64,000 nt of DNA from a virus, in IMG/VR virus record IMGVR_UViG_3300045988_126112, positions 1 through 64,000 of that record; one strand, 5' to 3'. Under the pieces are notes generated by a model. The model had not been told where the DNA came from. It saw only the letters and a program-made list of their open reading frames with translations, and did not search any database. The position numbers were made by a program, and so were the translations under genes. Each line of letters begins with the position of its first letter. Positions within the stretch are counted from its first letter, which is position 1. This document shows positions 22,982 through 47,751 of the stretch, in pieces.

Positions 22982-22982
22982 T

Positions 22983-23015: not shown

Positions 23016-23028
23016 GAGAGGTGATTAA

Positions 23029-31584: not shown

Positions 31585-31648
31585 GTATATAACATAATAT
31601 TAGATAGATTTTTGGTTATTTTATTCTTAAAAGATCCTTATGAGAGTT

Positions 31649-31682
31649 GAGAGATGGGTGGTTCCATCTCTCTTTATTTTTT
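31649..31682 (+). terminator. rho-independent terminator
   Basis: Stem gagagatgg/ccatctctc with loop gtggtt, followed by tttatttttt. Confidence 0.8.
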
Positions 31683-31698
31683 AAAAATAATAATAATC

Positions 31699-31708
31699 AT
31701 ATATTATA
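31699..31708 (+). promoter_or_regulatory. ATATATTATA promoter-like motif
   Basis: Exact 10-mer 53 nt upstream of ATG 31752. Confidence 0.45.
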
Positions 31709-31751
31709 ATGATGAGGAATAAAAAATTATAAACTTGGGAGGAATATAAAA

Positions 31752-32468: not shown

Positions 32469-32644
32469 TGATGGATATAAGATTTATGATAGAATATATT
32501 AATAGAATACATAAAGCAATTGGAAAAGAAATATTTACATATGTGGACAGAAGTGATTTCTATTTTATAAAGAAAGGTGAAGAAAAGATAGCAGTAGTTG
32601 ATTTTATCATATATCATGATAGAATCAAAAAATTACTTGGTTAA
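32468..32644 (+). CDS. small hypothetical protein (58 aa, below the track cut-off)
   Basis: TAATG overlap with the SLT gene stop, with SD aggagg 9 nt upstream. I hand-translated it without in-frame stops: MMDIRFMIEYINRIHKAIGKEIFTYVDRSDFYFIKKGEEKIAVVDFIIYHDRIKKLLG. Confidence 0.55.
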   Translation: MMDIRFMIEYINRIHKAIGKEIFTYVDRSDFYFIKKGEEKIAVVDFIIYHDRIKKLLG

Positions 32645-32768
32645 TGAATTCTATAGTAATATAGTATAGAATTGTAATAAAAATAATAAATTGAAGGTAT
32701 GTATTATATAAAATTTAATCAAGACAGTAACAAATTAATATAAATAAATTTTTAGGAGGTATACTTAT

Positions 32769-33098
32769 ATGAAAAAAGTATTAGTAATTTTAAATGAACA
32801 ACACAAATTAATGGAATCACAAGAAGCATTATTAAATGACAGATTTAAAGACAACTGGAGAATATTACCAATACCACAAAATGGAATGACAAAACAACAA
32901 CAAGATGAAGCTTTAAGAGACATCAAAGGACATGTTGTAGTATTTGCATCACCTATTCCATATTTACTTGGTAAAGCTGTAGCTCAAGGTGAAACAACTT
33001 TAGTATTACATAATGACCTTAGAGATAAAAAAGAATTGCCAAATGGTAAAATCATCTCAGTAGTTGCAAAAGAAGGATGGGAACTTTTAGAAATATAG
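32769..33098 (+). CDS. hypothetical protein (monocistronic)
   Basis: 109-aa ORF with SD taggaggt and a terminator directly downstream. Confidence 0.8.
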   Translation: MKKVLVILNEQHKLMESQEALLNDRFKDNWRILPIPQNGMTKQQQDEALRDIKGHVVVFASPIPYLLGKAVAQGETTLVLHNDLRDKKELPNGKIISVVAKEGWELLEI

Positions 33099-33123
33099 AA
33101 AGGAGATAACTTAGCTAATCTTT

Positions 33124-33160
33124 AAAGGTAGTGGAGAAATCCCTACCTTTATTTTTTTTT
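33124..33160 (+). terminator. rho-independent terminator
   Basis: Stem aaaggtag/ctaccttt, followed by a 9-T run. Confidence 0.7.
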
Positions 33161-33170
33161 CTATGTTACT
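33159..33170 (+). promoter_or_regulatory. TTCTATGTTACT 12-mer (copy 1 of 3)
   Basis: Exact 12-mer directly after the terminator T-run, 36 nt upstream of the ATATATTATA motif. Confidence 0.4.
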
Positions 33171-33194
33171 GTGTAAAACTCACTTATTTTGATT

Positions 33195-33204
33195 ATATAT
33201 TATA
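33195..33204 (+). promoter_or_regulatory. ATATATTATA promoter-like motif
   Basis: Exact 10-mer 56 nt upstream of ATG 33251, followed by TAAGTGTCATAATATAA. Confidence 0.45.
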
Positions 33205-33250
33205 TAAGTGTCATAATATAATATATATAAATTTAAGGAGGTAAAATATT

Positions 33251-33496
33251 ATGAAAAAATTAGAAATAGTAAAATTAATGTTAAAGAATAATTATAAATT
33301 TGCTGGAGAAGTATCTGGAGATACAGTAAATGAAAATGCAAAGTATGCGGATTGTGCATACTACGATAAATATCTTACTTTTAAGAAAGATGGAGAAACA
33401 TTATTTATAAATTCTTATAAAGGAGCATTAGGAAGAAGAATAATTAGAATATTTGAAAACGGTAGCTATAGAACATACGCTACTGATTTACTATAA
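33251..33496 (+). CDS. hypothetical protein (monocistronic)
   Basis: 81-aa ORF with SD aaggaggt and a terminator directly downstream. Confidence 0.8.
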   Translation: MKKLEIVKLMLKNNYKFAGEVSGDTVNENAKYADCAYYDKYLTFKKDGETLFINSYKGALGRRIIRIFENGSYRTYATDLL

Positions 33497-33497
33497 T

Positions 33498-33528
33498 AAA
33501 TAGGGTCGAAAGACCCTATTTATTTTTT
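33498..33528 (+). terminator. rho-independent terminator
   Basis: Stem aaatagggtc/gaccctattt with loop gaaa, followed by a T-run. Confidence 0.85.
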
Positions 33529-33582
33529 GCTTATTTCTGTTTATAATAACATACTATTAATTCAAGAAAGGAGGTAACTTAT

Positions 33583-34764
33583 ATGACTGCTAAAAAAGGT
33601 GATGTCATACTTAAACAGATATACCCTAAAGTAAGTAATAAGATTAAGAATAATCAAAGTAAATATAAACAATGTCTTGCTAGATTTGTAGATAAACGTT
33701 CTACAGAATTATATGATATTGCTCCATGTGATAGAATATATTTTGGTATAGAAGACTTGGAAGATTATTATAAATCTACTGGAATAAATGAAAAAGAAGT
33801 TGAATCAGCTTTATCAAATACTTACTATGCTGATATAGGAAACTTTAATCCAAGAGCTGCTAAAGACCCTTTTACTATAGCACAATTATGTGTCGTACGT
33901 TATTATTTTTTGCAAAAGAAACAAAAAGAATTAGAAGTATCTTGTATATATTTAGCATTTTCTGGAAAGTTTTATCCATCAATACATCATGGGTCTTTCC
34001 CAAAAGTTCAGCCATCTGAATATAGACACGTGATGGAATATGTAATAAACAATGAGCTATCTAATAAGTATGATATAAAATCACAAGGAAGTGTATTTAA
34101 AGCTGTACTTAGTATTTGTAATACTTGGATAAAAACATATGATGATAGATTTAAATCTTTTGAAGATGAAGATTGTGTTTATCTTATACAACAACTTCAT
34201 GATAGAATTAAATCATTTATGAAGAATATAGCTGAAATATATTATAGAGTATATGCTGATAAAGACAAATATTTAGCTTATAGTAGTGATAATCTAAGTG
34301 ATGATAATTATAGAATAGCTGATAATGATTCTTTAAGAATTGAAAGATGTGTTGAAAATACAATGAGCTATATAAATAATACATCAGTAGATTATAAGTT
34401 ATGTAAAATGACTTCAGACAGTAACGTAAAAACAGATGAAGTCAAAAGTATAATAGAAAGTATATTAAACAATAATGATAATGTACCAGAAATAAAAGAG
34501 CTGGTAAGAATTATAATAGCTGAGTATTTTGTAAATTCAAAAACTAAAGATGTAAGGGATATAGATTTCATTACGAAATCTATTACACCAAAACCTAATA
34601 CAAAAAATACAAATATACTTAGGGAAAAACAAATAATTGAAGGATGGTTATGCGAAAATAGTAGTGCTTATATGAGAAGACGTAGCAGAGAAGCTACAAA
34701 AAACAGTTACTTTAAATCAGTACTTACATATTTCGTATTACTAATTCATAATTCTAATAAATAA
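33583..34764 (+). CDS. hypothetical protein
   Basis: 393-aa ORF with SD aaaggaggt. No family recognised. Confidence 0.8.
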   Translation: MTAKKGDVILKQIYPKVSNKIKNNQSKYKQCLARFVDKRSTELYDIAPCDRIYFGIEDLEDYYKSTGINEKEVESALSNTYYADIGNFNPRAAKDPFTIAQLCVVRYYFLQKKQKELEVSCIYLAFSGKFYPSIHHGSFPKVQPSEYRHVMEYVINNELSNKYDIKSQGSVFKAVLSICNTWIKTYDDRFKSFEDEDCVYLIQQLHDRIKSFMKNIAEIYYRVYADKDKYLAYSSDNLSDDNYRIADNDSLRIERCVENTMSYINNTSVDYKLCKMTSDSNVKTDEVKSIIESILNNNDNVPEIKELVRIIIAEYFVNSKTKDVRDIDFITKSITPKPNTKNTNILREKQIIEGWLCENSSAYMRRRSREATKNSYFKSVLTYFVLLIHNSNK

Positions 34765-34778
34765 TGGAGGGATATATT

Positions 34779-35369
34779 ATGGAAGAAAGATTAAAAAACA
34801 ACTTATTCAAATTCGATTCTATGGGAAAAATAGAATGCAACAAACTTGTTAATGTAGAATGTAGTAATGATAAGGTAATCATTACTAATAACAATAACCT
34901 TACTAAAGGTTTAAGATTTTATGAAACAGTAAATGACGTTGCTGTGTGTGAAATTATAGATAAACTTGTAGTTGAACCAAACTTAATATCTATCTATAAA
35001 GATGGTGAGCTTTCTAGAAGTTTAGATTTAAATAACATGGAAACTCTAGAATTGGATGCTATAGAAAATACAGATGATAATAGCACAGAAATAACTTGCT
35101 CTTATACTTTAACTAAAGAAGCTATAGAAAGAACTGAACAAGAAAGAGAAACTGAACCAGAAAGTGAAGAAATTGAAGTTCATATAAATCAAATACTACC
35201 TAATTATATGGAACATTTAAACACTTTCTTAAACTTACAAATAATAGAATATAATAAATTATTACTATCTCTTCTTAATCCTAATTTAAAAGTAGAAGGA
35301 TTACTTGATAGTATAACTATATTACCACAAGATGTTACTATAGAAGATTTAAATAAAGAAGAAAAATAA
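34779..35369 (+). CDS. hypothetical acidic protein
   Basis: The track ATG at 34764 is part of the SD (atggaggg). ATG 34779 follows at proper spacing. Confidence 0.75.
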   Translation: MEERLKNNLFKFDSMGKIECNKLVNVECSNDKVIITNNNNLTKGLRFYETVNDVAVCEIIDKLVVEPNLISIYKDGELSRSLDLNNMETLELDAIENTDDNSTEITCSYTLTKEAIERTEQERETEPESEEIEVHINQILPNYMEHLNTFLNLQIIEYNKLLLSLLNPNLKVEGLLDSITILPQDVTIEDLNKEEK

Positions 35370-35392
35370 TTTCATTAAGGAGGATTTATATT

Positions 35393-35935
35393 ATGATAAA
35401 CAATTCATTATTTACAAGTAAAGACCAAACATGGGAAACACCACAAGATTTATTTGACACTTTAAATAACGTATTCAATTTTGAAGTAGACGTATGTGCA
35501 GTTCCTGAAACTGCTAAGTGTAGTTATTTTTATACACCTGAAATAGATGGTTTATCTCAAACTTGGGATAATACATGTTGGATGAATCCTCCTTATGGAA
35601 GAGAACAAGTTAAATGGATAGAAAAAGCATACAGAGAAAGTTTAAAAACTGGCACTACTGTTGTATGTTTAATACCTGCTAGACCTGATACAAAGGTCTG
35701 GCAGAATATTATATTTCCAAATGCATCAAACATATGTTTCTTAAAAGGAAGACTTAAGTTTGGAAACTCAAAGGACTCAGCTCCTTTTCCATCAGCATTA
35801 ATAGTATTTGGAGATGTTAATCAACAACAATTAGAAGTATTAAACCAATTAGGATATTCAGTTAATGTACTACCTACAGATAGAGTTGTGATACATTATC
35901 ACTATGAACATCCAGGTGGAATAAGATTTTTTTAG
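35393..35935 (+). CDS. dam: phage-type DNA N6-adenine methyltransferase (Dam family)
   Basis: The N-terminus FTSKDQTWETPQDLFD..LN..FNFEVDVCA and catalytic NPPYG are characteristic of the phage N-6-adenine-methyltransferase family. Confidence 0.85.
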   Translation: MINNSLFTSKDQTWETPQDLFDTLNNVFNFEVDVCAVPETAKCSYFYTPEIDGLSQTWDNTCWMNPPYGREQVKWIEKAYRESLKTGTTVVCLIPARPDTKVWQNIIFPNASNICFLKGRLKFGNSKDSAPFPSALIVFGDVNQQQLEVLNQLGYSVNVLPTDRVVIHYHYEHPGGIRFF

Positions 35936-35947
35936 GAGGAAAATAAT

Positions 35948-37120
35948 ATGCATGAAATTATATTGATATTAAATTATGATAAAGACGTTAATAAAGAAAA
36001 ATTAGATCAAGTTATAAGAGAGCAAGTTTATAGTAATTATAATAAACTGTATACGAATACTGGTAAAAATAATTTACATGACTTTATTAAGCAAATAATG
36101 ATAAATGTAGTTGGAGATACATTAGTATTTCCAGATTTTATATTAACACAAGAAGATTTACAAGCATTTTATACTGTAATGAGTGGTGAGTATACTGTAA
36201 ATATTATTCAATTTATAAATAATTGGAATAAAGATAAATTAACTGCAAAAGAATATAATGATAGTGTATTCTATGCTGCTCAATATTGTGATTCAATATA
36301 TCTAGTAAATGAAGCTACAGGATTCTATAAAAATTATAGTGACCATCTTTTAGAAGCTAGATACTTATTAGATATATTATCAAATAATTTAAAACACAAT
36401 TCTAGAGTTCATGATTCAGATAAAGTATTCGATAAAGATATTAATGAATGCTATGAAAAATATTACCCTGAACTTAAGAAAATACCTTATTATGATAAAG
36501 ATGGTAATAGAAATAAAGAATATTTAGATTATGAAGATAAGTATATGAGAGAAGCTATGAGTAAACATGTTATAATTAACTCTCATCATTACTATGATTG
36601 GAAAAATAGTAGCTCAGCAACATTACTAGATTTACTTGAAGCTGTAATTGATGTATATTCTTCTATAATTATAAATACTGAAGAACCTTTAGAATTAGAA
36701 AGATTTATTGACATAGTTAAGAAAAAAGGTATGCTAATAGATATAGAAGATATGATAGCTAATACTATAAGAGAATTAGGATATAAAACTAATGAATCTT
36801 ACTTTATTAGATATAATAGATCTAAACATATAGAAAAAAGAGTGATAGATAATGATGATTATAAACATCTTAGAGGTAAAGAAGCTCTTGATTGGATAAA
36901 AGCAAAGAATGATTATTATTATGAAAACTTTGTTAAATGCTTTATATCTAATATACAATTAATTACATTTACATTTTTTGATGAAAAAACTGGAATGTTT
37001 GTTAATGAAGACCTTAAGAGTATGAATTTTTATTTCGACTTATATTATAATGAAGATGAAAATGATATTAAACTTTTTGCTACTCCGATAGATGATAGTT
37101 TGGATAGAATATTAATATAG
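35948..37120 (+). CDS. hypothetical protein
   Basis: 390-aa ORF with SD taggagga. No family recognised. Confidence 0.8.
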   Translation: MHEIILILNYDKDVNKEKLDQVIREQVYSNYNKLYTNTGKNNLHDFIKQIMINVVGDTLVFPDFILTQEDLQAFYTVMSGEYTVNIIQFINNWNKDKLTAKEYNDSVFYAAQYCDSIYLVNEATGFYKNYSDHLLEARYLLDILSNNLKHNSRVHDSDKVFDKDINECYEKYYPELKKIPYYDKDGNRNKEYLDYEDKYMREAMSKHVIINSHHYYDWKNSSSATLLDLLEAVIDVYSSIIINTEEPLELERFIDIVKKKGMLIDIEDMIANTIRELGYKTNESYFIRYNRSKHIEKRVIDNDDYKHLRGKEALDWIKAKNDYYYENFVKCFISNIQLITFTFFDEKTGMFVNEDLKSMNFYFDLYYNEDENDIKLFATPIDDSLDRILI

Positions 37121-37133
37121 GGGGAATAGATAA

Positions 37134-37400
37134 ATGAAAACAAGATTTATTTTTGATAAAAGTAAAAATGTTTGTCCTAAAGAAGTAGAAATAGATTTAG
37201 ATGAGGAAAATATAATACAAAATGTAGAATTTACAGGAGGTTGCTCTGGAAATCTAAAAATGATTTGTAAAATGATACAGGGTAAATCCAGTAAAGAGGT
37301 AATTGAATTATTTAAAGGAAATACTTGTGGAAATAAAGATACATCTTGTTGCAATGAATTAGCAGAAATACTAAAGTTAATAACTGAGGAAGGTGAATAA
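37134..37400 (+). CDS. TSCPD-domain / TIGR03905-like small Cys-rich protein
   Basis: The pattern NVCPKE...VEFTGGCSGNLKMI..MI.GKS..EVIELFKGNTCGNKDTSCCNELAEIL matches the GVCS/GGC.GN/CG.K.TSC layout of this family. Confidence 0.7.
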   Translation: MKTRFIFDKSKNVCPKEVEIDLDEENIIQNVEFTGGCSGNLKMICKMIQGKSSKEVIELFKGNTCGNKDTSCCNELAEILKLITEEGE

Positions 37401-37402
37401 AG

Positions 37403-38140
37403 ATGGCTAAAGATATGAATAATAAATTAAGAGCTGAATGTGAGCAATTAATTTATAAAGTATTCGATGCCTTAGATCCTAGCAAAACTAATTCAGATTT
37501 CTATAAAGAGAAATTTTCTAAAATGAGTAATGACCAATTTAAGAAATTTATCTCTTTAAGATTTCCATATAGATTATATTTAACTCCTTTTAAAATAGAA
37601 CCAGGAATACCAGAAGCAGAAAAAGCATTGAAAATTCTTGGTGTACCTATGTTAGAAAAGGTTGCATTACCTTACTTATATCAAGATAAAGATGGTAATC
37701 CAGTTACAAGTAAAGAATGTATGGTTGGGTATATGCATATAAAAAAGGTTCAACAATTCGTTACTAAAAAGAATGCAATGTCTGTAGATATATCTCAAAG
37801 AGATATGAAATCTGGTCTTTTACTTAGTCATGATAAAAATGGTAAAGAATCAGATAGAGAATTTGAATCTTTAACAATATATGGATTAAACAATACAATG
37901 AAAGAGTTTGGTACTGTACGTGCCGATGCTATGGATGCTAAGAACTTAGCATATAATAATATAAATACAGTTGGTAGTTTATCTTTAAAAGAATTAGACA
38001 TAGATGATAAAGATTTATTATCTAAAAATATGATGAATGTATATCTTCTTGGTGCATTAATATATTCTGATGTAATAAATGAAGATTACTATTTACCATA
38101 TACATTAGATAATAAGAAGAAAGAATTAGAAAGAAAATAG
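37403..38140 (+). CDS. hypothetical protein
   Basis: 245-aa ORF with SD gaaggtga. No family recognised. Confidence 0.8.
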   Translation: MAKDMNNKLRAECEQLIYKVFDALDPSKTNSDFYKEKFSKMSNDQFKKFISLRFPYRLYLTPFKIEPGIPEAEKALKILGVPMLEKVALPYLYQDKDGNPVTSKECMVGYMHIKKVQQFVTKKNAMSVDISQRDMKSGLLLSHDKNGKESDREFESLTIYGLNNTMKEFGTVRADAMDAKNLAYNNINTVGSLSLKELDIDDKDLLSKNMMNVYLLGALIYSDVINEDYYLPYTLDNKKKELERK

Positions 38141-38152
38141 GAGGTGTTTCTA

Positions 38153-38290
38153 ATGACTGAACAATATGGAGTTATAAATGAAGTTGGTGATTTAGGTTTA
38201 GGTTTTACTCCTCTAAGTGAATCTGAACAAAAACAACTTAAAGAAGAAGACAAAAAGAAAAAAGATAAGAAAGATAAAGAAGAAGAATAA
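38153..38290 (+). CDS. 45-aa highly charged microprotein (below the track cut-off)
   Basis: SD ggaggtg lies 6 nt upstream and a strong terminator 10 nt downstream. I hand-translated MTEQYGVINEVGDLGLGFTPLSESEQKQLKEEDKKKKDKKDKEEE. Confidence 0.55.
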   Translation: MTEQYGVINEVGDLGLGFTPLSESEQKQLKEEDKKKKDKKDKEEE

Positions 38291-38299
38291 TATATAAAA

Positions 38300-38333
38300 T
38301 CCTCAGTAGAAATACTGAGGGTTTTTATTTTTT
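38300..38333 (+). terminator. rho-independent terminator abutting the SD of the tubulin operon
   Basis: Stem tcctcagta/tactgaggg with loop gaaa, followed by tttttatttttt. The SD aggagga begins at 38333. Confidence 0.8.
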
Positions 38334-38348
38334 AGGAGGATGAGTAAT

Positions 38349-38756
38349 ATGCAATGGAATTATAGAGTTAAAAGATTACTAAAAGCTGGTGAATATAATA
38401 GAAATGGATATATAGTAGATAAAGAAAGTCTAAATAAACATTTAGATACATTAATAAAATATGGCGTTTTACATGTATTAGAACCATTTGAAAATGATGA
38501 AGAAAAGATATTTAAAAATTTAGTTACAGTACCTTTAGAAAAAATAATAGGTAGTGTTTGTGGTTATGATGATGATTATTTTTATTTAAATGATATAATC
38601 AATCCAAAATATGAAGATTGTTTAGATGAATTTTCATGTGAAATGGCTTTACTTATAGATCCAAAGAATGATTATACAAATGAAGATGGGATATTAGTAC
38701 GTAAAGTACATAGAGTATTACAATTAAGATTAATTAAAAATATAGGAGGAAAATAA
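38349..38756 (+). CDS. hypothetical protein, paralogue A (upstream of tubulin gene)
   Basis: ATG 38349 lies 9 nt after the SD. YRVKRLLKAGEYNRNGYIVDKESLNKHL aligns with FKIKRFCEAGKKNANGYIFEVESTNKCI of the next ORF. Confidence 0.75.
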   Translation: MQWNYRVKRLLKAGEYNRNGYIVDKESLNKHLDTLIKYGVLHVLEPFENDEEKIFKNLVTVPLEKIIGSVCGYDDDYFYLNDIINPKYEDCLDEFSCEMALLIDPKNDYTNEDGILVRKVHRVLQLRLIKNIGGK

Positions 38757-38757
38757 A

Positions 38758-39159
38758 ATGAGTGAATTTAAAATCAAAAGATTTTGTGAAGCAGGAAAGA
38801 AAAATGCTAATGGCTATATATTTGAAGTAGAAAGTACTAATAAATGTATAGCTGACTTCTTAGGGGAAGACTTAGTATATGTAGAAAATAAATATGATTC
38901 AGATGGTTTTGCTTTATCAAAACCAATAGAAAAAATAGGAAAATTATCAGGCTTCGACAATGAATATATTTACTGTGATAATTTAAAAGAAGAATATAGA
39001 GATAGAATTGATGATTTAGTAGCAGGATTAATAATTAATGTAGAAGCAGATGAAAACTTCAAAATCTGTGAAGGTGTAGATGCAATAGTAGTTATACCTA
39101 ATAAACTTATAGGTATAAGAGTATGGGACAAAAATAAAAAAGATGTAACAATAAATTAA
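38758..39159 (+). CDS. hypothetical protein, paralogue B
   Basis: It starts 1 nt after the previous stop. It shares the N-terminal motif and the length class (133 versus 135 aa). Confidence 0.75.
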   Translation: MSEFKIKRFCEAGKKNANGYIFEVESTNKCIADFLGEDLVYVENKYDSDGFALSKPIEKIGKLSGFDNEYIYCDNLKEEYRDRIDDLVAGLIINVEADENFKICEGVDAIVVIPNKLIGIRVWDKNKKDVTIN

Positions 39160-39188
39160 ATCATTTAAAAACTAGGAGGTAGATATTT

Positions 39189-40307
39189 ATGATATCAATT
39201 AAAGTATTAGGAATAGGAGCAGCAGGAAATAAAGCAGCTGCACAATTAATTAAAAGTGGAGTATTAGAAGAATCTTCAGTAAGATTAATAAATAGTACTC
39301 TAGGAGATGTACCAGACGAATTTCAACAAATAGCAATAGCATTAAGTTCTGTTGATGCTGGTTGTGGTAAAGAAAGATCAATGGCTAAAAACTTAGCTAT
39401 ACAAGCACTTAAAACTAACTTAGGAAGAGAGTTAGCTGAATTAATAACAGATGAAGATAGATTAGTTGTTATAACTACTTCAACTGGTGGTGGAACAGGT
39501 GCAGGTTCTTCATTAATTATAGGACAATATATACAAGAAGTATTAGGTAAAAAAGTAATGATTTATGCATTTACAGGATTTGAAGAAGATGCTAGGGAAC
39601 TTAAAAATACTGTAGAATTCTTCAAAGAAATAAATCCAAGCTTTATAGTTCAAGCTACATCAAATAAGAAATTCTTAGATGAAGCACCTAATAAATTAAA
39701 AGCAGAAGAATTAGCTAATAATGAATTCTGTAATAGAATGAATATAATTACAGGACAAGGAATAGTTAACTCTACTCAAAATATAGACGAAACTGACTTA
39801 TTCAAAATAATAACAACTCCAGGTTATATGGATGCAGGATTTATATCAATGTCTAAACTAAAAAATACTGAACAATTTAATTCAAATATAGTTAATTTCT
39901 TAGATGAAAGACATTCATTAGAAACTTCTAAATCTGCTAAAAGATTAGCTGTAGTTGTTAACTTACAAGATAAATATCAAGATTTTGTAGATTATAAATT
40001 TACTCCATTAAAAGATAGATATGGTGTTCCATTTGAAGTATTCAATCATGTACAAGATGTTCAAGAAAACTTAAGTGATTGTATATGGTTTATATCTTCA
40101 GGAATGGCTATGCCTTTAGATGAAGTACAAGAAATATATGATAAATATATAGAAGAAACAAATAAGATAAATAAAGCTCAAGATAATTTTTTTGATGTAG
40201 CTAATCAAATGGTATCTGAAGATATAGATGATATGTTTGATATAAATACTACTGCAAATAAAGCATCAACTACAAAGACAGCTGAATCATTCTTTGAAAA
40301 CTTATAA
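39189..40307 (+). CDS. tubulin/FtsZ-family GTPase (PhuZ/TubZ/FtsZ-like)
   Basis: IKVLGIGAAGNKAA (G1), TSTGGGTGAGSS (tubulin signature GGGTG.G), NIDETDLFKIITTPGYMDAGF (T7-like NxDxxD), and an acidic C-terminal tail SEDIDDMFDI. Confidence 0.85.
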   Translation: MISIKVLGIGAAGNKAAAQLIKSGVLEESSVRLINSTLGDVPDEFQQIAIALSSVDAGCGKERSMAKNLAIQALKTNLGRELAELITDEDRLVVITTSTGGGTGAGSSLIIGQYIQEVLGKKVMIYAFTGFEEDARELKNTVEFFKEINPSFIVQATSNKKFLDEAPNKLKAEELANNEFCNRMNIITGQGIVNSTQNIDETDLFKIITTPGYMDAGFISMSKLKNTEQFNSNIVNFLDERHSLETSKSAKRLAVVVNLQDKYQDFVDYKFTPLKDRYGVPFEVFNHVQDVQENLSDCIWFISSGMAMPLDEVQEIYDKYIEETNKINKAQDNFFDVANQMVSEDIDDMFDINTTANKASTTKTAESFFENL

Positions 40308-40322
40308 AAATAAAATACAATT

Positions 40323-40332
40323 ATATATTATA
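40323..40332 (+). promoter_or_regulatory. ATATATTATA promoter-like motif
   Basis: Exact 10-mer 51 nt upstream of ATG 40374. The extended match TTATATATTATA..GTGTAATAAAATAATA is shared with the 51300 copy. Confidence 0.5.
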
Positions 40333-40373
40333 AACGTGTAATAAAATAATAATATATAAAGGAGATGTTATTT

Positions 40374-41285
40374 ATGTTTGAAAGAATGATAAACAACGAT
40401 TTTTTAAAAGAGGGTATGCCATTGCCAGACCCTAAACCATTACACAAAATTACATTTTTGGATAATCCTAAACTTTATCCAGATATGTATAAAGAAAAAT
40501 TTCAAAATTTAGATGCATTAGAAGTAAATGAAATATACAATATATTGGAAGGCAGTATAAGTGTAATATTAGAAAGAGCTGCAGATAATGAAGAATTTGA
40601 AAAAGACTTATTGAAGAATGATAAAATCTTAAATATATTATTGCGTTTATTTGTTGACAATTCTTCAAAAGGTTCTTATTTAGATTATATTTCTTTGTAT
40701 AGATTCAATTCAATAGCTGTATATTGTTTTGAAAATGTACCTAATTTAGCTAATATGTATATCCAATTAGGATACTATGCTAATAAATATATGATAGACA
40801 AAATAACTCCAATAGGAGAAGTTAGTCAAGAAGATGTAACTAAAATGATGTTATATTTTCTTAGAGGTGGTGACCCATTAAGTAATATAGTAAGATTGAA
40901 TAATTATGTTATAAAACTACCTAACAAGATTATCACAGATTATTATATGCTTAGATTGTATGAAACATTATGTTCCGATTTAGGTTTAGTAGGTTTATCT
41001 GCTATAGCTAAATCAGTATTGTTTGATTTTAATATTATAACAAATGATAATGAAAATAAAAATATGAGTGCTATGATTAATGCAGTATTATCATTGATAG
41101 ACCAAAATCCATCAATAACTAGAACTGTATTACTTGATATATATAATTATGCATCAACACCATTAAATGGAAAATACAGAGGTATGAGAATTAGTTTATC
41201 TAAAGGATTATCTCCAAGTGAATTTCCAATGTTATGTCAAACAATAAATTTATTGATGATGCAAGAACAAATATACTTACCATAA
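40374..41285 (+). CDS. hypothetical helical protein downstream of tubulin
   Basis: ATG 40374 is preferred because the track ATG at 40365 abuts the SD aaaggag. No family recognised. Confidence 0.75.
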   Translation: MFERMINNDFLKEGMPLPDPKPLHKITFLDNPKLYPDMYKEKFQNLDALEVNEIYNILEGSISVILERAADNEEFEKDLLKNDKILNILLRLFVDNSSKGSYLDYISLYRFNSIAVYCFENVPNLANMYIQLGYYANKYMIDKITPIGEVSQEDVTKMMLYFLRGGDPLSNIVRLNNYVIKLPNKIITDYYMLRLYETLCSDLGLVGLSAIAKSVLFDFNIITNDNENKNMSAMINAVLSLIDQNPSITRTVLLDIYNYASTPLNGKYRGMRISLSKGLSPSEFPMLCQTINLLMMQEQIYLP

Positions 41286-41358
41286 AAAATAATATGAATG
41301 TAACATATAAGTATATAGAAATACTTATGTTTACTTTCTCTTTATAAATAAATGGTTG

Positions 41359-41394
41359 ATATAGAGCTGTTAATTCAGCTCTATATTTTTTTTT
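41359..41394 (+). terminator. rho-independent terminator
   Basis: Stem atatagagctg/cagctctatat with loop ttaatt, followed by a 9-T run. Confidence 0.85.
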
Positions 41395-41410
41395 CAGGAG
41401 GTGTAATATT

Positions 41411-41776
41411 ATGAAATTAAAGAAATTATTAGTTCCAGTTATATTAGCAGGTTGTTTACTTACAGGCTGTCAAAAACCTGTATATGATAAACGATTTGCA
41501 GATGAAGTAAAAATAACTTATATGGAGTATAAACCATCAGAATATAAAATGCGATATAACCCAGCTACAAAATCTTGGGTTCCTTATCATACTGATGAAG
41601 AATATCTTGTAGAAGTAAAATATGATAAAGATGGACACAGAACATATTTTTATGATAAATATAGCTATGAAGCTGTTAAAGATAAAAAAATAGGTGATAA
41701 TGTAAAAGCTTTAGTTCATGTATATGTTTATGAAGATAGTACAGCTTCATATACAATAGAAAGTTTAAAAAAATAG
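41411..41776 (+). CDS. lipoprotein
   Basis: Signal peptide MKLKKLLVPVILAGC with lipobox L-A-G-C. SD caggaggtg. Confidence 0.75.
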   Translation: MKLKKLLVPVILAGCLLTGCQKPVYDKRFADEVKITYMEYKPSEYKMRYNPATKSWVPYHTDEEYLVEVKYDKDGHRTYFYDKYSYEAVKDKKIGDNVKALVHVYVYEDSTASYTIESLKK

Positions 41777-41788
41777 GAGGATGATATT

Positions 41789-43030
41789 ATGTCATTATTA
41801 GTACAATCATTTAGAGAAAAAGTTAGTAAAGAAAAAGATATTAGAAAGAAAGATGAATCAAAACCTATGACTTGTTATAGTACAGGATTCTTAGGATTTG
41901 ATATGAGAAATGGTTCAATTCAATATGGTAAAAGAGATGGTAAAGAGTATAAGTATATATCTGCAGGAATAGTAGATGGTACTTATAATATGATTATAGG
42001 AGGTACTGGTACAGGTAAAACAACATTTGTTTTACAAGCATCAGGAAATATAGTCAGACCATTTGAAAACTCTGCTATATTCTTAGATGATGCTGAAGCC
42101 GCATCATCTGCAGTAGTTAGTAGAAACCAACAATTATTAGGAATATATGACCCAGAAGAATATAAAAGAAAAGTAATAGCTAGAAATACTGGTATAACAG
42201 CTGAAAATCTATATGAAAGAATAGTAATGATACATGATATGAAATTAGCTGAACCAGATAAATATATGTATGATACTGGTCAATATGATATGTTTGGAGA
42301 AAAGATATATAAACTTCAACCAACAGTATATATACTAGATTCATTAATGCAATTAATGCCTGATGCAGTTACAGAAGAAGAGTCTTTATCAGGACAAATG
42401 AGTGTAACTTCAACAGCTAAAACAAATGCAGCTATATTTAGAAGAATAATACCTAAATTAAAAGCAGCTAATATAATCTTATTTGTAATAAATCATATAT
42501 TAGAAGACGTTAATATATCTATCTTTAAGAAAAAACCAGATGTTCCATATCTTAAACAAGGTGAACGTCTTCCAGGTGGTAAAACAATACCATACTTAGC
42601 AAATAATTTAATAAGATTTGATTTATCTAGTAAGTTGAAATCTGATGAAGGATTCTATATAGATGGTCATATAGTATCTATATCATTCAATAAATCTAGA
42701 TCTAATAAAGCAGGTAAATCTGTAAATATGGTATTTGACCAAGAAAGAGGATATGACTATGATTTATCATTATATCTTTTACTTAAAGAAAATAAACGTA
42801 TTAAAGGAGCAGGAGCTTATCTATATCTAGAAAGCTGTCCAACTATAAAATTTGCTCAAAAACAATTTAAAGAAAAACTTATGCAGCATCCTGAACTTCA
42901 AGATGCTTTTAATAAAGAAGTAGCACCTTTACTAATGGAAATGGTATCTGAAGTTACAGAAGAAGAATCAGAGAGAAGTGTTGTTAGTAAAAACTTATTC
43001 AGCATGATGAATGATGAATTAACAGCATAA
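41789..43030 (+). CDS. uvsX: UvsX/RecA-family recombinase
   Basis: Walker A GGTGTGKTTF and Walker B VYILDSL. The layout SGQMSVTSTAKTNAAIFRRIIPKLKAANIILFVINH...PGGKTIPYLA...FNKSRSNKAG parallels T4 UvsX (recalled from memory, not searched). Confidence 0.7.
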   Translation: MSLLVQSFREKVSKEKDIRKKDESKPMTCYSTGFLGFDMRNGSIQYGKRDGKEYKYISAGIVDGTYNMIIGGTGTGKTTFVLQASGNIVRPFENSAIFLDDAEAASSAVVSRNQQLLGIYDPEEYKRKVIARNTGITAENLYERIVMIHDMKLAEPDKYMYDTGQYDMFGEKIYKLQPTVYILDSLMQLMPDAVTEEESLSGQMSVTSTAKTNAAIFRRIIPKLKAANIILFVINHILEDVNISIFKKKPDVPYLKQGERLPGGKTIPYLANNLIRFDLSSKLKSDEGFYIDGHIVSISFNKSRSNKAGKSVNMVFDQERGYDYDLSLYLLLKENKRIKGAGAYLYLESCPTIKFAQKQFKEKLMQHPELQDAFNKEVAPLLMEMVSEVTEEESERSVVSKNLFSMMNDELTA

Positions 43031-43032
43031 TC

Positions 43033-43042
43033 ATATATTATA
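43033..43042 (+). promoter_or_regulatory. ATATATTATA promoter-like motif
   Basis: Exact 10-mer 60 nt upstream of ATG 43093. The hairpin 43042-43069 lies between the motif and the SD. Confidence 0.4.
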
Positions 43043-43074
43043 TGAGTGATAGAGAAATCTATCACTCATCTTTA
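43042..43074 (+). terminator. hairpin (weak terminator or leader structure)
   Basis: An 11-bp stem atgagtgatag/ctatcactcat with loop agaaat. Only cttt follows. Confidence 0.45.
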
Positions 43075-43092
43075 AGGTAGGAGGATAGTAAT

Positions 43093-45294
43093 ATGAAAAT
43101 TGATGTTATCGACAAAGTAAAGGAAATGGAGGATCAATTTCCTTCAATGGAGTATTTATTATGTAAAGGATTGATGATGCCATTCAATCCTTCAAATTCA
43201 GGTAGTAGAAAACAAATGATGGCAGCTCAACTTGAGCAAGGATTAGAGTTATATCATTCTGAATTACCAAGAGTACAAACTGGATATGAAAATAGATTTG
43301 GTGACAGATCTTCTTCATTAATAATTGCAGATAAAGAGTATGTGGTAGTTCACAAAATAAGTAAATTTAGTTTTGATCCAGATAGATTCTATTATCTAAT
43401 TATCTATGATACTAAGGGTAATTCATTTGATATGATTACTAAACAAGAGTATCAATATATAACAGAATCTTATGGAATCTTATACAATACAAAATATATG
43501 GATAAACTTAGACCAGGTGTTAAGATTAATAAAGGTGATACAATAAGAAAATCTTTAGCTTATGATGAATTTAATAATAGATGTGATGGTGTAAATCTTA
43601 TGTCTACTTATTTATCATCAGAAGAAACAAAAGAAGATGGTATTTGGATTTCTGAAACAGCTTCTAAGCTATTGGCGTGTCCATTAGTAAAGAAAGTACA
43701 AATTCAAATAAATGATAATGATATACCATTAAATCTGTACTATGATGATGTAGAAAGAGATTATAAATCATTTCCAGATGTAGGTGAAAATACAGATAGA
43801 ACTAATGGTGTATTAATGGGTATAAGACGTATGAAGAAAGAAGAAATACTATTCACTCAAAACAAAAATAATTTATCAAAAATAATGCTTAGTGATGATG
43901 TATTTACAGCTTCAGGAACTGTAGTAGATGTTGATATATATTGTAATAATCCAGAAACATTATCAAAATATGTTCATTTTGGACAATTACAATTTTATCA
44001 TCAAGAACAAATGGCTTTCATGAATGATTTTATATCTAAAGTTGGTCCATTGATAGAGTCTGGATATAATTGCTCTTATGAGATGAAAAAATTATATCAT
44101 AGATTCAAAAAGATATATTATGGTGGGCAATATCTTAAAGATAATGTCTTCTCAAATACAATATTAGAATTGACATTAGTTGAATATAATCCAGTTGAAG
44201 TTGGTGATAAGATAGCTAACAGATATGGAGGTAAAGGTGTTGTATCAAAAATAAGTCCAGATAATATGATGCCTTTATTAGATAATGGTAGAAGGGTAGA
44301 TTTAATCTATAATGGTTCTACTTGTATAAATAGAGAGAATAATGGACAATTAAATGAAATGTTTCTTAATTATGCAAGTAATAGAATTGTGGATCATGTA
44401 AGAAGTTTAGATGGTTCATTTGACTTAAATTATACTATAAATCTATATATAGATTATCTTAATATTCTTAATCCTAATTTAGCTGAAAGAATGGAGCAAT
44501 ATATACTTTCAGCAGAATTGGATGACCAAGTTGCATTTATGCAATATATATTTGATGAAGGATTTATACTTTCATTAGACCCTATGTGTGATATCAATAT
44601 AGATACATTATATAAGATTTGGAAGAAATTCGGATTCATAAAACAATACAATGTTGTTGTACCTCAAATAGGTTCAGATGGTAATTATAGATATGTAAAA
44701 ACTAGAAGAACTCTTGAATGTGGTGAACAATATATTTGGCGTTTAAAACAATATGCTGAAGAAAAGTTTTCTACAGTTTCATTATCAGCAACAAACTTAA
44801 AAAATGAAAATACTAGAAACAGCAGTAAGAAATCATATAAATCTCCACATGCAAAAACTTGTGTAAGATTTGGTGATATGGAAACTGGTAATATGCTTCA
44901 TTTAGGTATAGAACCATTGATTACAAATCTAATGATGCTATCTTTAGCACCTAAAGCTAGAAGAAGATTAGGAACTGAATTAACTGAAGGTCCTTTATTT
45001 GATTTAGATGTTAAACTTCATCCTGAAGATAGTAACAGAAGTGTAGAAATATTGAATGCTTATCTTATAACTATAGGATTGAAACTTACTTTTACTAAAG
45101 TGCCTAAAAAGTTTATATATCCTATAAAATATAATATAAATGGTGTTCCAGTTTTAAATAAAGATGATACTACTTATCATCCTGCAATAACTTATATTGA
45201 TAAGAAAGGAAATCAATTTATAGGAGATTATGAACCTGTAAATCCTATAGATAATTTAAAAGAAGTTATTCATTGGAACAGAAAGGAAAAATAA
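43093..45294 (+). CDS. rpoB: multisubunit RNA polymerase beta subunit, C-terminal half
   Basis: MMPFNPSNSGSRKQMMAAQLEQ matches the [22 protein letters not shown] region, NRYGGKGVVSKI matches RHGNKGVIS, MMPLLDNGRRVDLIYN matches DMPY..DG.PVDIVLNP, and RFGDMETGNM matches RFGEMEVWA. Confidence 0.85.
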   Translation: MKIDVIDKVKEMEDQFPSMEYLLCKGLMMPFNPSNSGSRKQMMAAQLEQGLELYHSELPRVQTGYENRFGDRSSSLIIADKEYVVVHKISKFSFDPDRFYYLIIYDTKGNSFDMITKQEYQYITESYGILYNTKYMDKLRPGVKINKGDTIRKSLAYDEFNNRCDGVNLMSTYLSSEETKEDGIWISETASKLLACPLVKKVQIQINDNDIPLNLYYDDVERDYKSFPDVGENTDRTNGVLMGIRRMKKEEILFTQNKNNLSKIMLSDDVFTASGTVVDVDIYCNNPETLSKYVHFGQLQFYHQEQMAFMNDFISKVGPLIESGYNCSYEMKKLYHRFKKIYYGGQYLKDNVFSNTILELTLVEYNPVEVGDKIANRYGGKGVVSKISPDNMMPLLDNGRRVDLIYNGSTCINRENNGQLNEMFLNYASNRIVDHVRSLDGSFDLNYTINLYIDYLNILNPNLAERMEQYILSAELDDQVAFMQYIFDEGFILSLDPMCDINIDTLYKIWKKFGFIKQYNVVVPQIGSDGNYRYVKTRRTLECGEQYIWRLKQYAEEKFSTVSLSATNLKNENTRNSSKKSYKSPHAKTCVRFGDMETGNMLHLGIEPLITNLMMLSLAPKARRRLGTELTEGPLFDLDVKLHPEDSNRSVEILNAYLITIGLKLTFTKVPKKFIYPIKYNINGVPVLNKDDTTYHPAITYIDKKGNQFIGDYEPVNPIDNLKEVIHWNRKEK

Positions 45295-45296
45295 AT

Positions 45297-47648
45297 ATGT
45301 ATGAATATTTAAAACAAATGTTAGAGTATATAAAGACATATAATGAATTGCCAAAAGATTCAATTCAATTTAATGATATATGTTTAGAGTTGTATAATAA
45401 CAGTAATAACTTAAATGATTACCAAGTCCAGTCTTTGGACTTGGTTTTAAAAATATGTAATACAGTTTATGAGAATTCATCTACTGTATTAATAGATGAT
45501 GATTTTTATGATCATCTAGTTGAAATATATAGAAAGTATAATGGAGATTTCAGAATTGGTGCAGAAACCATAGACATAAATGAAATGAGAAATGTAATTA
45601 CTTTTATAAAGAAACCTGAAGAAAGAGATGTTATAAGTTATAATAAGTATAATGAAGATAATATGATGTTTTATAAAGATTTATCGTATAATAGTCCTTT
45701 GGATAAATATGATTTGAAGAAACAAAATTATACTTATAATGGAGATATATCTAAAAGAAAAGTTTTAGATAGTCAATTATATCCAAGTCTTGTAGGTACA
45801 TTGGACAAATGTAAATTTGTTTTAGATAGTCAAGCAAAAGAAAAAGGAGTTTATAATGAACCAAATGTTAAAATATTTGAAAGAGATTTTCTAATCAAAC
45901 ATATGAAAATGGGAATTATAAATCCACATGACAAATACACATTAATAGCAGAATTGAAATATGATGGTATTTCAATATGTGCTGAAGTACAAAATGGTGT
46001 TATAATATCAGCAAATACAAGAGGAGATGTTAAAGATGATTTATCAGCTGATTTAACTCCTATATTTGCAGGATATAAATTTTATAGAGTTAATGAAGAT
46101 ATATCTAATGGTGAAAAATATGGTGTTAAATTTGAAGCCGTAATGACAAAATATAATCTTATGATGTATAATCAAATGAAAGGAAGAAGTTATGCTAATG
46201 GTAGAACAGCCATAATAGGATTACTATCTTCTTCAGATGCCTATAAATATAGAGATTTGATAACATTGGTTCCATTGGATTGGTCTTATAGTGATCAAAT
46301 GACTGAGTTAGGTGATAATTATGAATTAGCATATATATTAGGAACTAGAAAGATGCAAATTCAATTACTTAACGATAGATTTAGAAATGGTCAAATTAAT
46401 AGATTTACTATAATGGAAGGAGATTATAAGAGTCTATTATTCCAAGTAAAAAGATTTGTTGAAGAAGCAGAAATGATGAGAGATTTTATTCCATATATGT
46501 ATGATGGAGTAGTAATATCTTATGATGATCCTTCAATAAGAAAACAACTAGGTAGAGAGCATAGTGTAAATAAATATAGTATAGCTATAAAATTTAGTGC
46601 TTTAAAGAAAAGTACTATATTTACTGGTTATACTTATACAGTAGGTCAAGATGGTAGTATAACTCCAATGATACATTATAATCCTGTAATGTTCTTTGGA
46701 ACTATACATGACAAAGCAAGTGCTCATTCATATGATAGATTTATGAAACTTGGTTTAAGAAAAGGAGATGTAGTTGATGTTGAGTATACTAATGACGTAA
46801 TGGCTTATGTTACTAAACCAGATAATAGTCATAATGCTAGTAATAATAATCCATTAGAAGTATTTCCAACTCATTGTCCTTCATGTGGTAGTAAACTTGT
46901 TATAAGTAAATCTGGTAAACAAGTTATGTGTGAAAATAAAGATTGTCCAGAAAGAAATATTAGAAGAATTGATAATATGTTTAAGAAGTTAAATATAAAA
47001 GATTTTTCTGAAGCTTATCTTACAAGAATAGGAAGATATCATTTAAAAGATTTAATGAGTTTAACTAAAGATGATGTATCTTTCTTAGGAGAAGTTAATT
47101 CTCAAAAATTTGTAGATAGTATGAGATATTTACAAACTAATCCAATATATGATTATAAAATCATAGGTTCATTAGGATTCAATAATGTAGGTAGTGAGAA
47201 ATGGAAAATCATATTTACAAAATATGACTTACATGAATTTGTTAACTTAATGAATAATAACTGTCTTCCTATGGAAAGTTTAACTAATCTTAAAGGATTG
47301 GGTCCTGAGACAGTTAATACAATCTTTAATGAATATGAATTCTTTAAAGAAGATATTATGTTTATAGAAACTTTTAAAAATGTAAAATCTATTAAACATG
47401 ATATTGAGAATATAAATATAAAGAAGATAAGATTCACAGGTGTTAGAGATAGTGAACTTATTAACTTTGTATCAAACATGGGACATGATATTAATGGAAC
47501 TGGAAGTGTTACAAAAGATACAGATATATTAATAGTCCCATATGAAAATTATTCAAGTTCAAAAGTTTCAAAGGCGATATCAAATGGAAACACTTTAATA
47601 GTCCCAATTGATACGTTTAAGGAAAACTTAAATGAGTATCTAAAGTAA
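45297..47648 (+). CDS. ligA: NAD-dependent DNA ligase (LigA family)
   Basis: Adenylation motif ELKYDGISI (KxDG), Zn finger CPSCGSKLV...CENKDCPE, HhH-like region, and a C-terminal BRCT-like IRFTGVRDSEL. ATG 45297 follows the upstream stop, and the track TTG at 45273 overlaps the upstream gene. Confidence 0.85.
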   Translation: MYEYLKQMLEYIKTYNELPKDSIQFNDICLELYNNSNNLNDYQVQSLDLVLKICNTVYENSSTVLIDDDFYDHLVEIYRKYNGDFRIGAETIDINEMRNVITFIKKPEERDVISYNKYNEDNMMFYKDLSYNSPLDKYDLKKQNYTYNGDISKRKVLDSQLYPSLVGTLDKCKFVLDSQAKEKGVYNEPNVKIFERDFLIKHMKMGIINPHDKYTLIAELKYDGISICAEVQNGVIISANTRGDVKDDLSADLTPIFAGYKFYRVNEDISNGEKYGVKFEAVMTKYNLMMYNQMKGRSYANGRTAIIGLLSSSDAYKYRDLITLVPLDWSYSDQMTELGDNYELAYILGTRKMQIQLLNDRFRNGQINRFTIMEGDYKSLLFQVKRFVEEAEMMRDFIPYMYDGVVISYDDPSIRKQLGREHSVNKYSIAIKFSALKKSTIFTGYTYTVGQDGSITPMIHYNPVMFFGTIHDKASAHSYDRFMKLGLRKGDVVDVEYTNDVMAYVTKPDNSHNASNNNPLEVFPTHCPSCGSKLVISKSGKQVMCENKDCPERNIRRIDNMFKKLNIKDFSEAYLTRIGRYHLKDLMSLTKDDVSFLGEVNSQKFVDSMRYLQTNPIYDYKIIGSLGFNNVGSEKWKIIFTKYDLHEFVNLMNNNCLPMESLTNLKGLGPETVNTIFNEYEFFKEDIMFIETFKNVKSIKHDIENINIKKIRFTGVRDSELINFVSNMGHDINGTGSVTKDTDILIVPYENYSSSKVSKAISNGNTLIVPIDTFKENLNEYLK

Positions 47649-47680
47649 TAAATTATAACCAAGGAAACATAATTATAATT

Positions 47681-47690
47681 ATATATTATA
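47681..47690 (+). promoter_or_regulatory. ATATATTATA promoter-like motif
   Basis: Exact 10-mer 71 nt upstream of ATG 47752. Confidence 0.45.
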
Positions 47691-47751
47691 AGTATGATAA
47701 ACAATAATAATTGTTTATAAATATTATTTAAATTATTAGGAGGATTGTAAT

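Follow-up and report, generated by a model that had tools for sequence, protein, structure and literature searches.

A candidate TubZ-like filament system in jumbo phages of the AR9/PBS1/S6 type: the GTPase Z and its acidic companion D

The stretch of DNA analysed here (the window) comprises the first 64,000 nucleotides (nt) of the IMG/VR virus record IMGVR_UViG_3300045988_126112 and carries, at positions 39189–40307, a gene for a predicted GTPase of the tubulin/FtsZ superfamily, which we call Z. The nearest characterized relative of Z appears to be TubZ of Clostridium botulinum phage c-st, and its conserved companion in related loci appears to be D, an acidic protein encoded directly downstream, rather than the tandem paralogues A and B encoded directly upstream. 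We consider it somewhat more probable than otherwise (about 0.55) that Z and D constitute a TubZ-like filament system that operates without TubR and to which A and B do not belong; judged from sequence, the filament-forming GTPase is a much more secure part of this proposal than its cargo. An earlier sequence-only reading of the region had recognized the class of the protein correctly, but was mistaken about its partners and its closest analogue. Adjacency in a single genome had misled that reading, and the conserved partner of Z emerged only when 87 loci were compared.

The features of Z and D are as follows (+ strand throughout; aa, amino acids).

39189–40307, +: Z, predicted TubZ-like tubulin/FtsZ-superfamily GTPase, 372 aa
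39210–39239, +: T1 phosphate-binding loop GIGAAGNKAA (residues 8–17), with G10, A12, G13, N14 and K15 invariant in 37 homologues
39360–39377, +: GCGKER loop, letter for letter the same as in c-st TubZ
39477–39512, +: T4 tubulin signature TSTGGGTGAGSS (residues 97–108), with S98, G101, G102, T103 and G104 invariant in the 37 homologues
39777–39797, +: T7 synergy loop QNIDETD (N-x-D-x-x-D), with Q197, N198, I199, D200 and D203 invariant in the 37 homologues
40149–40304, +: acidic tail, presumed flexible, with a net charge of about −7 over the last 52 residues
40182–40193, 40215–40244 and 40284–40304, +: conserved tail motifs DNFF, SEDIDDMFDI and ESFFENL, respectively
40374–41285, +: D, acidic (pI 5.0), predicted all-alpha, 303 aa, conserved downstream neighbour of Z

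The GTPase Z and its relatives

All of the signature strings that the sequence-only reading had listed for Z were found. GIGAAGNK, GGGTGAG (superfamily form GGGTG(S/T/A)G) and QNIDETD, the signatures of the superfamily, are all there, and NIDETDLF...GYMDAG corresponds to residues 198–217. The invariance of the key T1, T4 and T7 residues in the 37 homologues is as expected for a polymerizing GTPase that activates hydrolysis in trans, and Z appears to bear every sequence feature of a self-activating tubulin-type GTPase. The Pfam Tubulin family (PF00091) matches Z itself only marginally (33.6 bits, with a cut-off of 33), and most Z homologues carry a precomputed PF00091 match. FtsZ chains in the PDB are matched at E 7e-9 with the single sequence and at 2e-13 with the family profile, and the alignment of Z to FtsZ covers both tubulin domains. 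By signatures and profile matches, Z is a tubulin/FtsZ-superfamily GTPase.

In a search of the family profile against all PDB chains, the FtsZ N-terminal domain (2e-13) was followed by CetZ (4e-12), c-st TubZ (1e-9) and RepX (5e-4); the full-length c-st TubZ chain 3V3T was matched at 4e-7 over profile positions 23–369, and no PhuZ chain was found at E ≤ 0.01. Comparison of the family profile with individual tubulins by hhalign gave the following probabilities.

Phage G gp138: 97.5%, E 7e-12, 298 columns
c-st TubZ: 97.4%, E 1.3e-11, 261 columns
Escherichia coli FtsZ: 95.0%, E 3.5e-8, 284 columns
PhuZ of 201phi2-1: 66%, E 5.5e-5, 187 columns, N-terminal domain only

The Z family is monophyletic in a neighbour-joining (NJ) tree that includes PhuZ, TubZ and FtsZ, where it joins c-st TubZ and phage G gp138 rather than FtsZ or PhuZ. 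This tree is crude, being distance-based with few outgroups, and it does not resolve the deep branches within the family. Profile comparison and this small tree both point to c-st TubZ as the nearest characterized relative of Z, and the GCGKER loop and tail that are common to Z and c-st TubZ lead to the same placement.

Two other identities for Z were rejected. Capture of a host FtsZ, which had been named at the outset as a finding that would weaken the tubulin call, is ruled out as the origin of Z by the NCBIfam FtsZ equivalog TIGR00065: Z scores 26.6 bits against a cut-off of 295.2, a sub-threshold match that is its sole match in NCBIfam. Identity with PhuZ is ruled out by the hhalign result, which is limited to the N-terminal domain, and by the lack of PhuZ chains among the PDB profile matches. 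The analogy with PhuZ and the phage nucleus that the sequence-only reading had drawn is correspondingly weak (66%, compared with 97% for c-st TubZ). In addition, PBS1 and PALS_2, which are the nearest relatives by RNA polymerase (RNAP), encode multisubunit RNAPs but no chimallin (PMC10299810). None of the 10 window ORFs (open reading frames) scanned, from 64 kb of a genome of ~244 kb, matched a chimallin family.

TubZ of phage c-st, which is part of a type III partition system (TubZ–TubR–tubS–TubY; PDB 3V3T, 4XCQ), is the best-matching characterized protein. It shares with Z the superfamily, the identical GCGKER loop and a long acidic tail with a DFF-S-K-Y/L tip, and, like Z, it comes from a phage of low-GC Firmicutes. 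However, pairwise identity is only ~27% over 162 aa, and the T7 loop of Z has the FtsZ form N-x-D-x-x-D. The genetic settings also differ: c-st is a plasmid prophage, whereas Z is carried by a jumbo phage of lytic type that encodes RNAPs of its own, and the Z locus has neither TubR upstream, nor TubY downstream, nor centromere repeats, its neighbour being an unrelated acidic helical protein. Bacillus phage G gp138, annotated as putative FtsZ-like, has a profile similarity to Z as strong as that of c-st TubZ and reaching the first tail motif. Phage G is, like the phage that carries Z, a very large phage of a Firmicute, but the neighbours of gp138 (gp137 and a kinase) differ from those of Z; gp138 was undetected by proteomics and has no assigned function (PMC12484599).

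PhuZ of the Chimalliviridae (201phi2-1 gp59, phiKZ gp39) is likewise a tubulin encoded by a jumbo phage with multisubunit RNAPs, and its tail serves filament contacts; the Z tail, by contrast, ends in an FF tip rather than in an acidic knuckle. Bacterial FtsZ has T1, T4 and T7 of the same form as Z and provides the top raw sequence matches in the PDB. Unlike FtsZ, Z lies in a phage context and not in a division gene cluster, and it has no FtsZ C-terminal peptide. This peptide, of the form D-I-P-x-F-L in FtsZ (more generally D/E-I/V-P-x-F-L, and binding FtsA, ZipA and SepF), was not seen in the Z tail in a comparison by eye.

The tail of Z is longer than was thought. SEDIDDMFDI, taken by the sequence-only reading for the end of the protein, occupies residues 343–352 of 372 and is followed by NTTANKASTTKTAESFFENL, 20 residues more, which end in ESFFENL. 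In all Z family members, a variable linker follows the globular part and carries the motifs DxFF, D-x-MFD-I and a terminal K-x-DFF-x-x-L/Y. The last of these is KNDFFSKY in some members, and c-st TubZ ends in ...EKEIDINDFFSKYM (DINDFFSKYM). The c-st TubZ tail is 50 residues long, acidic and unstructured, and its uncharged tip modulates contacts with upper subunits of the filament and binds both the TubR–centromere complex and TubY (PMC5322520). The tail of Z appears to be built to the same plan as that of the c-st motor, with an acidic stretch of ~50 residues and a hydrophobic FF tip, and, by analogy, may work as the c-st tail does.

The Z family is large and unnamed. None of the window proteins A, B, Z and D has a match in PHROGs, and comparison of the region and of Z with 50,697 GenBank phage records (blastn, tblastn) gave no match. 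Neither the Z family nor the Z–D pair was found described in the searchable literature, which covers PhuZ, c-st TubZ and the phage G protein.

Gene order around Z and the acidic protein D

The 87 loci compared consist of the window, of relatives, both near and remote, that were retrieved by exact protein, and of 80 IMG/VR loci; the proteins of these loci were clustered by all-against-all BLASTP. The conserved order, from 5′ to 3′, is an RNAP-beta-like piece of ~245 aa (related to the RNAP domain of AR9 g078, a virion RNAP subunit), a small ORF of 41–52 aa, a hairpin, a variable slot, Z and D, followed by UvsX, the RNAP beta C-terminal piece and ligase. D is present in 82 of the 87 loci. In most lineages it begins 11–30 nt after Z with no promoter motif between the two genes, and it also lies 11 nt after the most divergent Z (locus L103). 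The protein evolves fast, with 13–23% identity to the window D across lineages, and is acidic in every lineage (pI 4.7–5.5). To judge by this order, the conserved companion of Z is D and not A or B.

The sequence-only reading had described the protein after Z as a helical protein of 306 aa with a motif of its own at 40323. The motif is indeed present (ATATATTATA, part of a longer promoter-like signal treated below), but the length was probably overestimated: a start at 40374, which gives the 303 aa of the public gene calls, is likelier than the alternative start at 40365, because the earlier ATG abuts the Shine–Dalgarno sequence without spacing. The D-family profile has no match in Pfam or the PDB, and an alignment of 16 members gave, in PHROGs, four isolated weak matches to single members, none of them meaningful. 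Comparison of D with c-st TubY, a protein with a MerR-type HTH and a C-terminal tetramer, yielded nothing by BLASTP and a probability of 0.3% by hhalign, and hhalign of D with the syntenic AR9 proteins g080 and g081 yielded nothing. That the genes flanking Z resemble neither TubR nor TubY, as first noted from the sequence, is thus borne out, A having no similarity to TubR.

In one phage lineage (L049–L057; for example L050:7232–9400), three tandem paralogues of 216–251 aa (cluster f10) are inserted between Z and D, which shifts D ~2.3 kb downstream.

Homologues of Z that are 40–43% identical occur in chromosomal contexts of metagenome-assembled genomes (MAGs) of Acidaminococcales and Phascolarctobacterium, where they adjoin transaldolase or Wzi (L097:2288–7686, L098:760–6117, L101:6001–11310 and L102). 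These bacterial loci have no D; Z is followed instead by a lipoprotein of 436 aa and by a protein of 955 aa with multiple transmembrane (TM) segments and actin/Hsp70-like motifs (DFGTTNT, DIGGGSTD), neither of which has a Pfam or PADLOC match. The bacterial copies are nested within the Z family in the NJ tree, which leaves the direction of transfer open.

The upstream slot, transcription signals and the host phage

A, B, Z and D are co-directional ORFs on the + strand within 38100–41400, with no rival long ORF on the other strand. The features around Z and D are as follows.

38153–38290, +: small ORF, 45 aa, YGVINEVGDLGLGF plus a Lys/Glu-rich tail, left border of the variable slot and outside the Z module
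38296–38325, with T-tract to 38333, +: intrinsic-terminator-like hairpin with a stem of 12–13 bp and a GAAA loop
38349–38756, +: A, 135 aa, lineage-specific insert, no catalytic His or Ser
38758–39159, +: B, 133 aa, same family as A
40322–40338, +: AR9-type early (virion RNAP) promoter-like motif TATATATTAT-N6-G, predicted +1 at G40338
41358–41394, +: terminator-like hairpin closing the unit

That A and B, packed tightly 5′ of Z, are paralogues, as first proposed, is supported by BLASTP (27% identity over 111 aa, E 9e-13). For A, the start at 38349 (135 aa) is likelier than that at 38340, because the earlier ATG abuts the Shine–Dalgarno sequence without spacing; public gene calls give 135 or 138 aa. 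The family is found in only 5 of the 87 loci, all of the window's own lineage, and other genes fill the slot elsewhere. A search with the A+B profile of 1.84 billion cluster representatives returned only 21 relatives, and the two of these that have readable contigs adjoin dUTPase or other ORFs unlike Z, never a Z gene. This distribution marks A and B as a lineage-specific insert.

The structure of A was modelled with AF2 at moderate confidence (pLDDT 73.6, pTM 0.67). A Foldseek search with this model, of the kind that the sequence-only reading had proposed, gave T4 prohead protease gp21 (5JBL) as the top PDB match, although a weak one (E 0.17, probability 0.8, TM-score 0.41–0.47). In BFVD, the best matches that carry a name are nearly all prohead proteases or the small prohead core scaffold proteins of large myoviruses (best E 2.5e-4 at a TM-score of ~0.5; three matches at E ≤ 0.001), and BFVD matches of 120–145 aa are similar in size to A and B. 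At the level of sequence, A and B match no protease family in Pfam, PHROG or the PDB, their profile giving chance matches only in the last of these, and the idea of a motif in common with T4 gp21 was not borne out; the likeness is one of fold only. An alignment of 18 family members contains no conserved His or Ser, and only R12, N20 and N22 are near-invariant. A and B are best read, from the model, as a catalytically dead prohead-protease-like fold, inserted into the variable slot in this lineage and outside the Z–D system. They had been proposed as cytoskeletal partners of Z and as a new accessory set; the first proposal is contradicted by their rarity, their predicted fold and the occurrence of their relatives away from Z, and the second fails with the match of A to an unrelated structural family.

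The hairpin segment upstream of A folds at −17.7 kcal/mol (z = −4.2 relative to shuffles), and a hairpin occupies the same place after the small ORF in L004, L006 and L007. The AGGAGG Shine–Dalgarno sequence of A (38334–38339) begins directly after the T-tract, and no early-promoter motif was found between 38140 and 39189. Since this arrangement leaves no room for a promoter, transcripts of A, B and Z must pass the hairpin unless they begin inside A or B; the order of strong terminator and Shine–Dalgarno sequence without an intervening promoter, from which the sequence-only reading had deduced read-through, was thus confirmed. An AR9-type late promoter (AACA-N6-TA/G) was also sought by eye in the intergenic regions, with none found upstream of A and one in a relative (L004); by a rough estimate this frequency is near chance in DNA so rich in AT, and the motif was not used further. 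Hairpins with a T-tract running straight into the next Shine–Dalgarno sequence are present also at 22982–23028 and 41358–41410, and read-through, or RNA processing at hairpins, seems to be general in this genome.

The small ORF before the hairpin has homologues in all four of the relatives first examined (L004:4560–4679, L005:4860–5000, L006:4984–5118, L007:5014–5139) and in at least 45 of the clustered loci, and it is the last gene of the upstream transcription unit. An AR9-type early promoter motif precedes it in L005–L007. The motif before this ORF and the terminator-like hairpin after it suggest a strongly expressed small early protein.

The early promoter consensus of AR9, recognized by the virion RNAP, has been defined experimentally as AAATATATATTAT-(6N)-G (PMC5312081). 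Sites of the form ATATATTAT-N6-G number 18 in the window (2.5 expected), are mostly intergenic and are co-oriented with the genes. Examples lie on the + strand at 16399, 18802, 24249, 25638, 31699, 33195, 40323, 43033, 47681, 51302, 55583, 57673 and 59993, and on the − strand at 11784–11799 and 22067–22082. As the window motif equals the AR9 consensus, this uncultured gut phage probably has an AR9-like early transcription system. Before D, an early-type motif is found in the window, L004 and L009 and not in most other lineages, so that the separate D promoter appears to be a feature of some lineages laid over an ancestral Z–D operon.

A protein identical to Z is encoded on human gut metagenome contigs of 243–246 kb, one of which is binned as a Romboutsia timonensis MAG, and the window represents 64 kb of a phage genome of ~244 kb (contig of 244–246 kb). 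Its proteins include a terminase, a DnaB-type helicase, DNA polymerase pieces, an SbcC-like protein, a gyrase subunit, a ligase, a UvsX-like recombinase and pieces of a multisubunit RNAP beta subunit. The RNAP beta piece encoded at 43093–45294 is ~30% identical to its counterparts in Staphylococcus phages S6 and PALS_2 and Bacillus phages AR9 and PBS1. The assignment to a jumbo phage with a split multisubunit RNAP, already made in the sequence-only reading, is sound, and the nearest known group is that of AR9, PBS1 and S6. The Z family is carried by gut phages of this type, with genomes of 200–290 kb, two split multisubunit RNAPs and AR9-type early promoters. No match was obtained when the window was scanned with Rfam and for tRNAs, or with PADLOC.

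Several further observations concern the surroundings of the slot. The ORF at 37403–38140 (245 aa) matches PHROG families annotated as RNA polymerase beta subunit and as hydrolase. Its syntenic counterpart in AR9, g078, encodes a virion RNAP subunit whose annotation includes an HD phosphohydrolase part; the window appears to have just the RNAP-like part of g078, in a small gene of its own. A stand-alone TSCPD-domain protein (88 aa) is encoded at 37134–37400, two genes 5′ of the hairpin, and in L004 the variable slot adjoining Z holds a dUTPase gene (L004:5495–5962). These two genes of nucleotide metabolism may bear on whether the AR9-like phages considered here use DNA that contains dU.

Proposed function of Z–D and alternatives

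We propose that Z polymerizes with GTP into dynamic filaments, and that the tip of its tail would serve both contacts within the filament and the binding of a partner. This partner would be D, the acidic helical protein encoded directly downstream, which, because it is acidic, is more likely to be a regulator or modulator of the filaments, or a protein adaptor, than a DNA binder. Within the host cell, the filaments would move phage DNA or replication bodies or hold them in position, a role that fits the place of Z in a block of replication and recombination genes. In the window, A, B and Z would be expressed from transcripts that cross the hairpin, D having gained an early promoter of its own in this lineage.

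A number of observations weigh against this proposal. With respect to Z, raw hidden Markov model (HMM) scores against PDB chains place FtsZ N-terminal domains slightly above c-st TubZ. With respect to D, the gene is missing in L007 and beside the bacterial Z homologues, genes of a phage replication block can keep their order by descent even if they are functionally unconnected, and the acidic character of the protein makes it no easy DNA adaptor; the AF2 model of D has a pLDDT of 37.8, from a shallow alignment of sequences at least 94% identical, and shows mostly helical secondary structure. The syntenic interval of AR9 contains genes for a membrane protein, a holin and an AAA ATPase and neither Z nor D, which indicates that Z–D was acquired by the present clade. 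No gene like that of TubR, a small winged-helix protein, lies nearby, A being without similarity to c-st TubR and Pfam revealing no other small DNA-binding candidate near Z, and iteron-like direct or tandem repeats that could form a centromere are absent from 37300–41900 and from 30000–48000, where only chance pairs were seen. Finally, relatives of Z are carried by 9 of 185,579 species-representative genomes, and as each of the nine is a binned or uncultured assembly, there is no sign of a plasmid-prophage state.

Several of these observations bear also on a role of Z in partition of the plasmid type, which we regard as unlikely. Its closest characterized relative is the partition TubZ of c-st, and phages of the PBS1/AR9 type are known for pseudolysogeny. 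However, TubR, TubY and centromere repeats are all wanting, Z is located in a lytic replication block, and four of the nine species-representative matches, uncultured or binned as all of them are, represent the bacterial chromosomal variant.

Z could instead act on division of the host, either as an FtsZ mimic that poisons or hijacks the Z ring or by competing for binders of the FtsA/SepF type. Such an attack would have parallels, in that lambda Kil and T7 gp0.4 reportedly block FtsZ, and it would agree with the FtsZ chains at the top of the PDB sequence matches and with the FtsZ form of the T7 loop. We nevertheless hold it to be unlikely, slightly more so than partition: the TIGR00065 score is far below the cut-off (26.6 as opposed to 295 bits), the tail motifs (DxFF, MFD, DFF) are by eye unlike the FtsZ peptide, and the family is nearer to c-st TubZ. 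Full conservation of the catalytic residues over deep divergence, moreover, fits an autonomous polymer better than a poison subunit.

The gene directly 5′ of Z in most relatives offers a different lead. It encodes a protein in which an N-terminal TM helix or signal peptide is combined with a coiled coil and a GH73 glucosaminidase domain (L006:5214–5981, L010:5139–5894, L012:5156–5950, L066:4955–5911 and ~65 more, a family of 69 members), lies 8–124 nt from Z in most lineages and is replaced in three loci by a gene for an SLT-domain protein of the same architecture (L005:5050–5940, L086:4272–5354, L104:4876–5754). Z, perhaps with D, might accordingly organize localized wall hydrolysis for lysis or release together with this peptidoglycan hydrolase, which the window lineage would have lost or moved. 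The window contains no homologue of the GH73 hydrolase detectable by tblastn, and it and several other lineages retain Z–D without a hydrolase gene. The short cytoplasmic N-termini of the hydrolases are not conserved, and AR9 has its membrane protein and holin at the syntenic place without Z, which suggests that lysis genes simply live there and that the hydrolase may just mark their usual place. A function of Z in lysis is, on balance, improbable.

The least probable reading, and a very improbable one, is the original view of A, B, Z and D as one operon in which the paralogues and D are a new accessory set for a PhuZ-like cytoskeleton, for although the four genes are tightly packed between two hairpins (gaps of 1 nt between A and B and 29 nt between B and Z) and the paralogues A and B are unlike TubR, the model of A has its best structural matches among prohead proteases and core scaffold proteins (T4 gp21 first in the PDB; BFVD E 2.5e-4), other members of the A/B family adjoin dUTPase or non-Z ORFs, and PhuZ is a distant relative.

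The proposal of a TubZ-like Z–D filament system without TubR can be extended, tentatively and at clearly lower odds, to an undescribed two-component cytoskeleton of jumbo phages with multisubunit RNAPs. In this extended form, the filament would derive from TubZ without retaining TubR or a centromere, the FF tail would dock onto D, and the GTPase would have been exchanged with Negativicutes; the cytoskeleton would organize the replication zone or move capsids or DNA. Were this the case, a GTPase shared with Negativicutes, and paired there with a lipoprotein and a large membrane protein, would represent a filament-driving module that can be combined with different partners.

There are two known settings for phage tubulins: in Gram-negative hosts, PhuZ keeps the phage nucleus centred and rotating, and TubZ partitions plasmid prophages together with TubR. 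The Z family adds a third setting, that of lytic-type jumbo phages assembled from samples of the gut and other host-associated sites and mostly binned with Bacillota. The family numbers hundreds of members, none of them cultured, lacks a PHROG family and represents a TubZ-like motor without the known adaptors. The bacterial homologues of Z, with their different partners, add an evolutionary angle. Should Z and D prove to function as a pair, they would illustrate how a filament motor comes to be coupled to a different cargo, and would provide a handle on the intracellular organization of phages that have their own RNAPs and whose nearest relatives by RNAP do without the nucleus shell protein.

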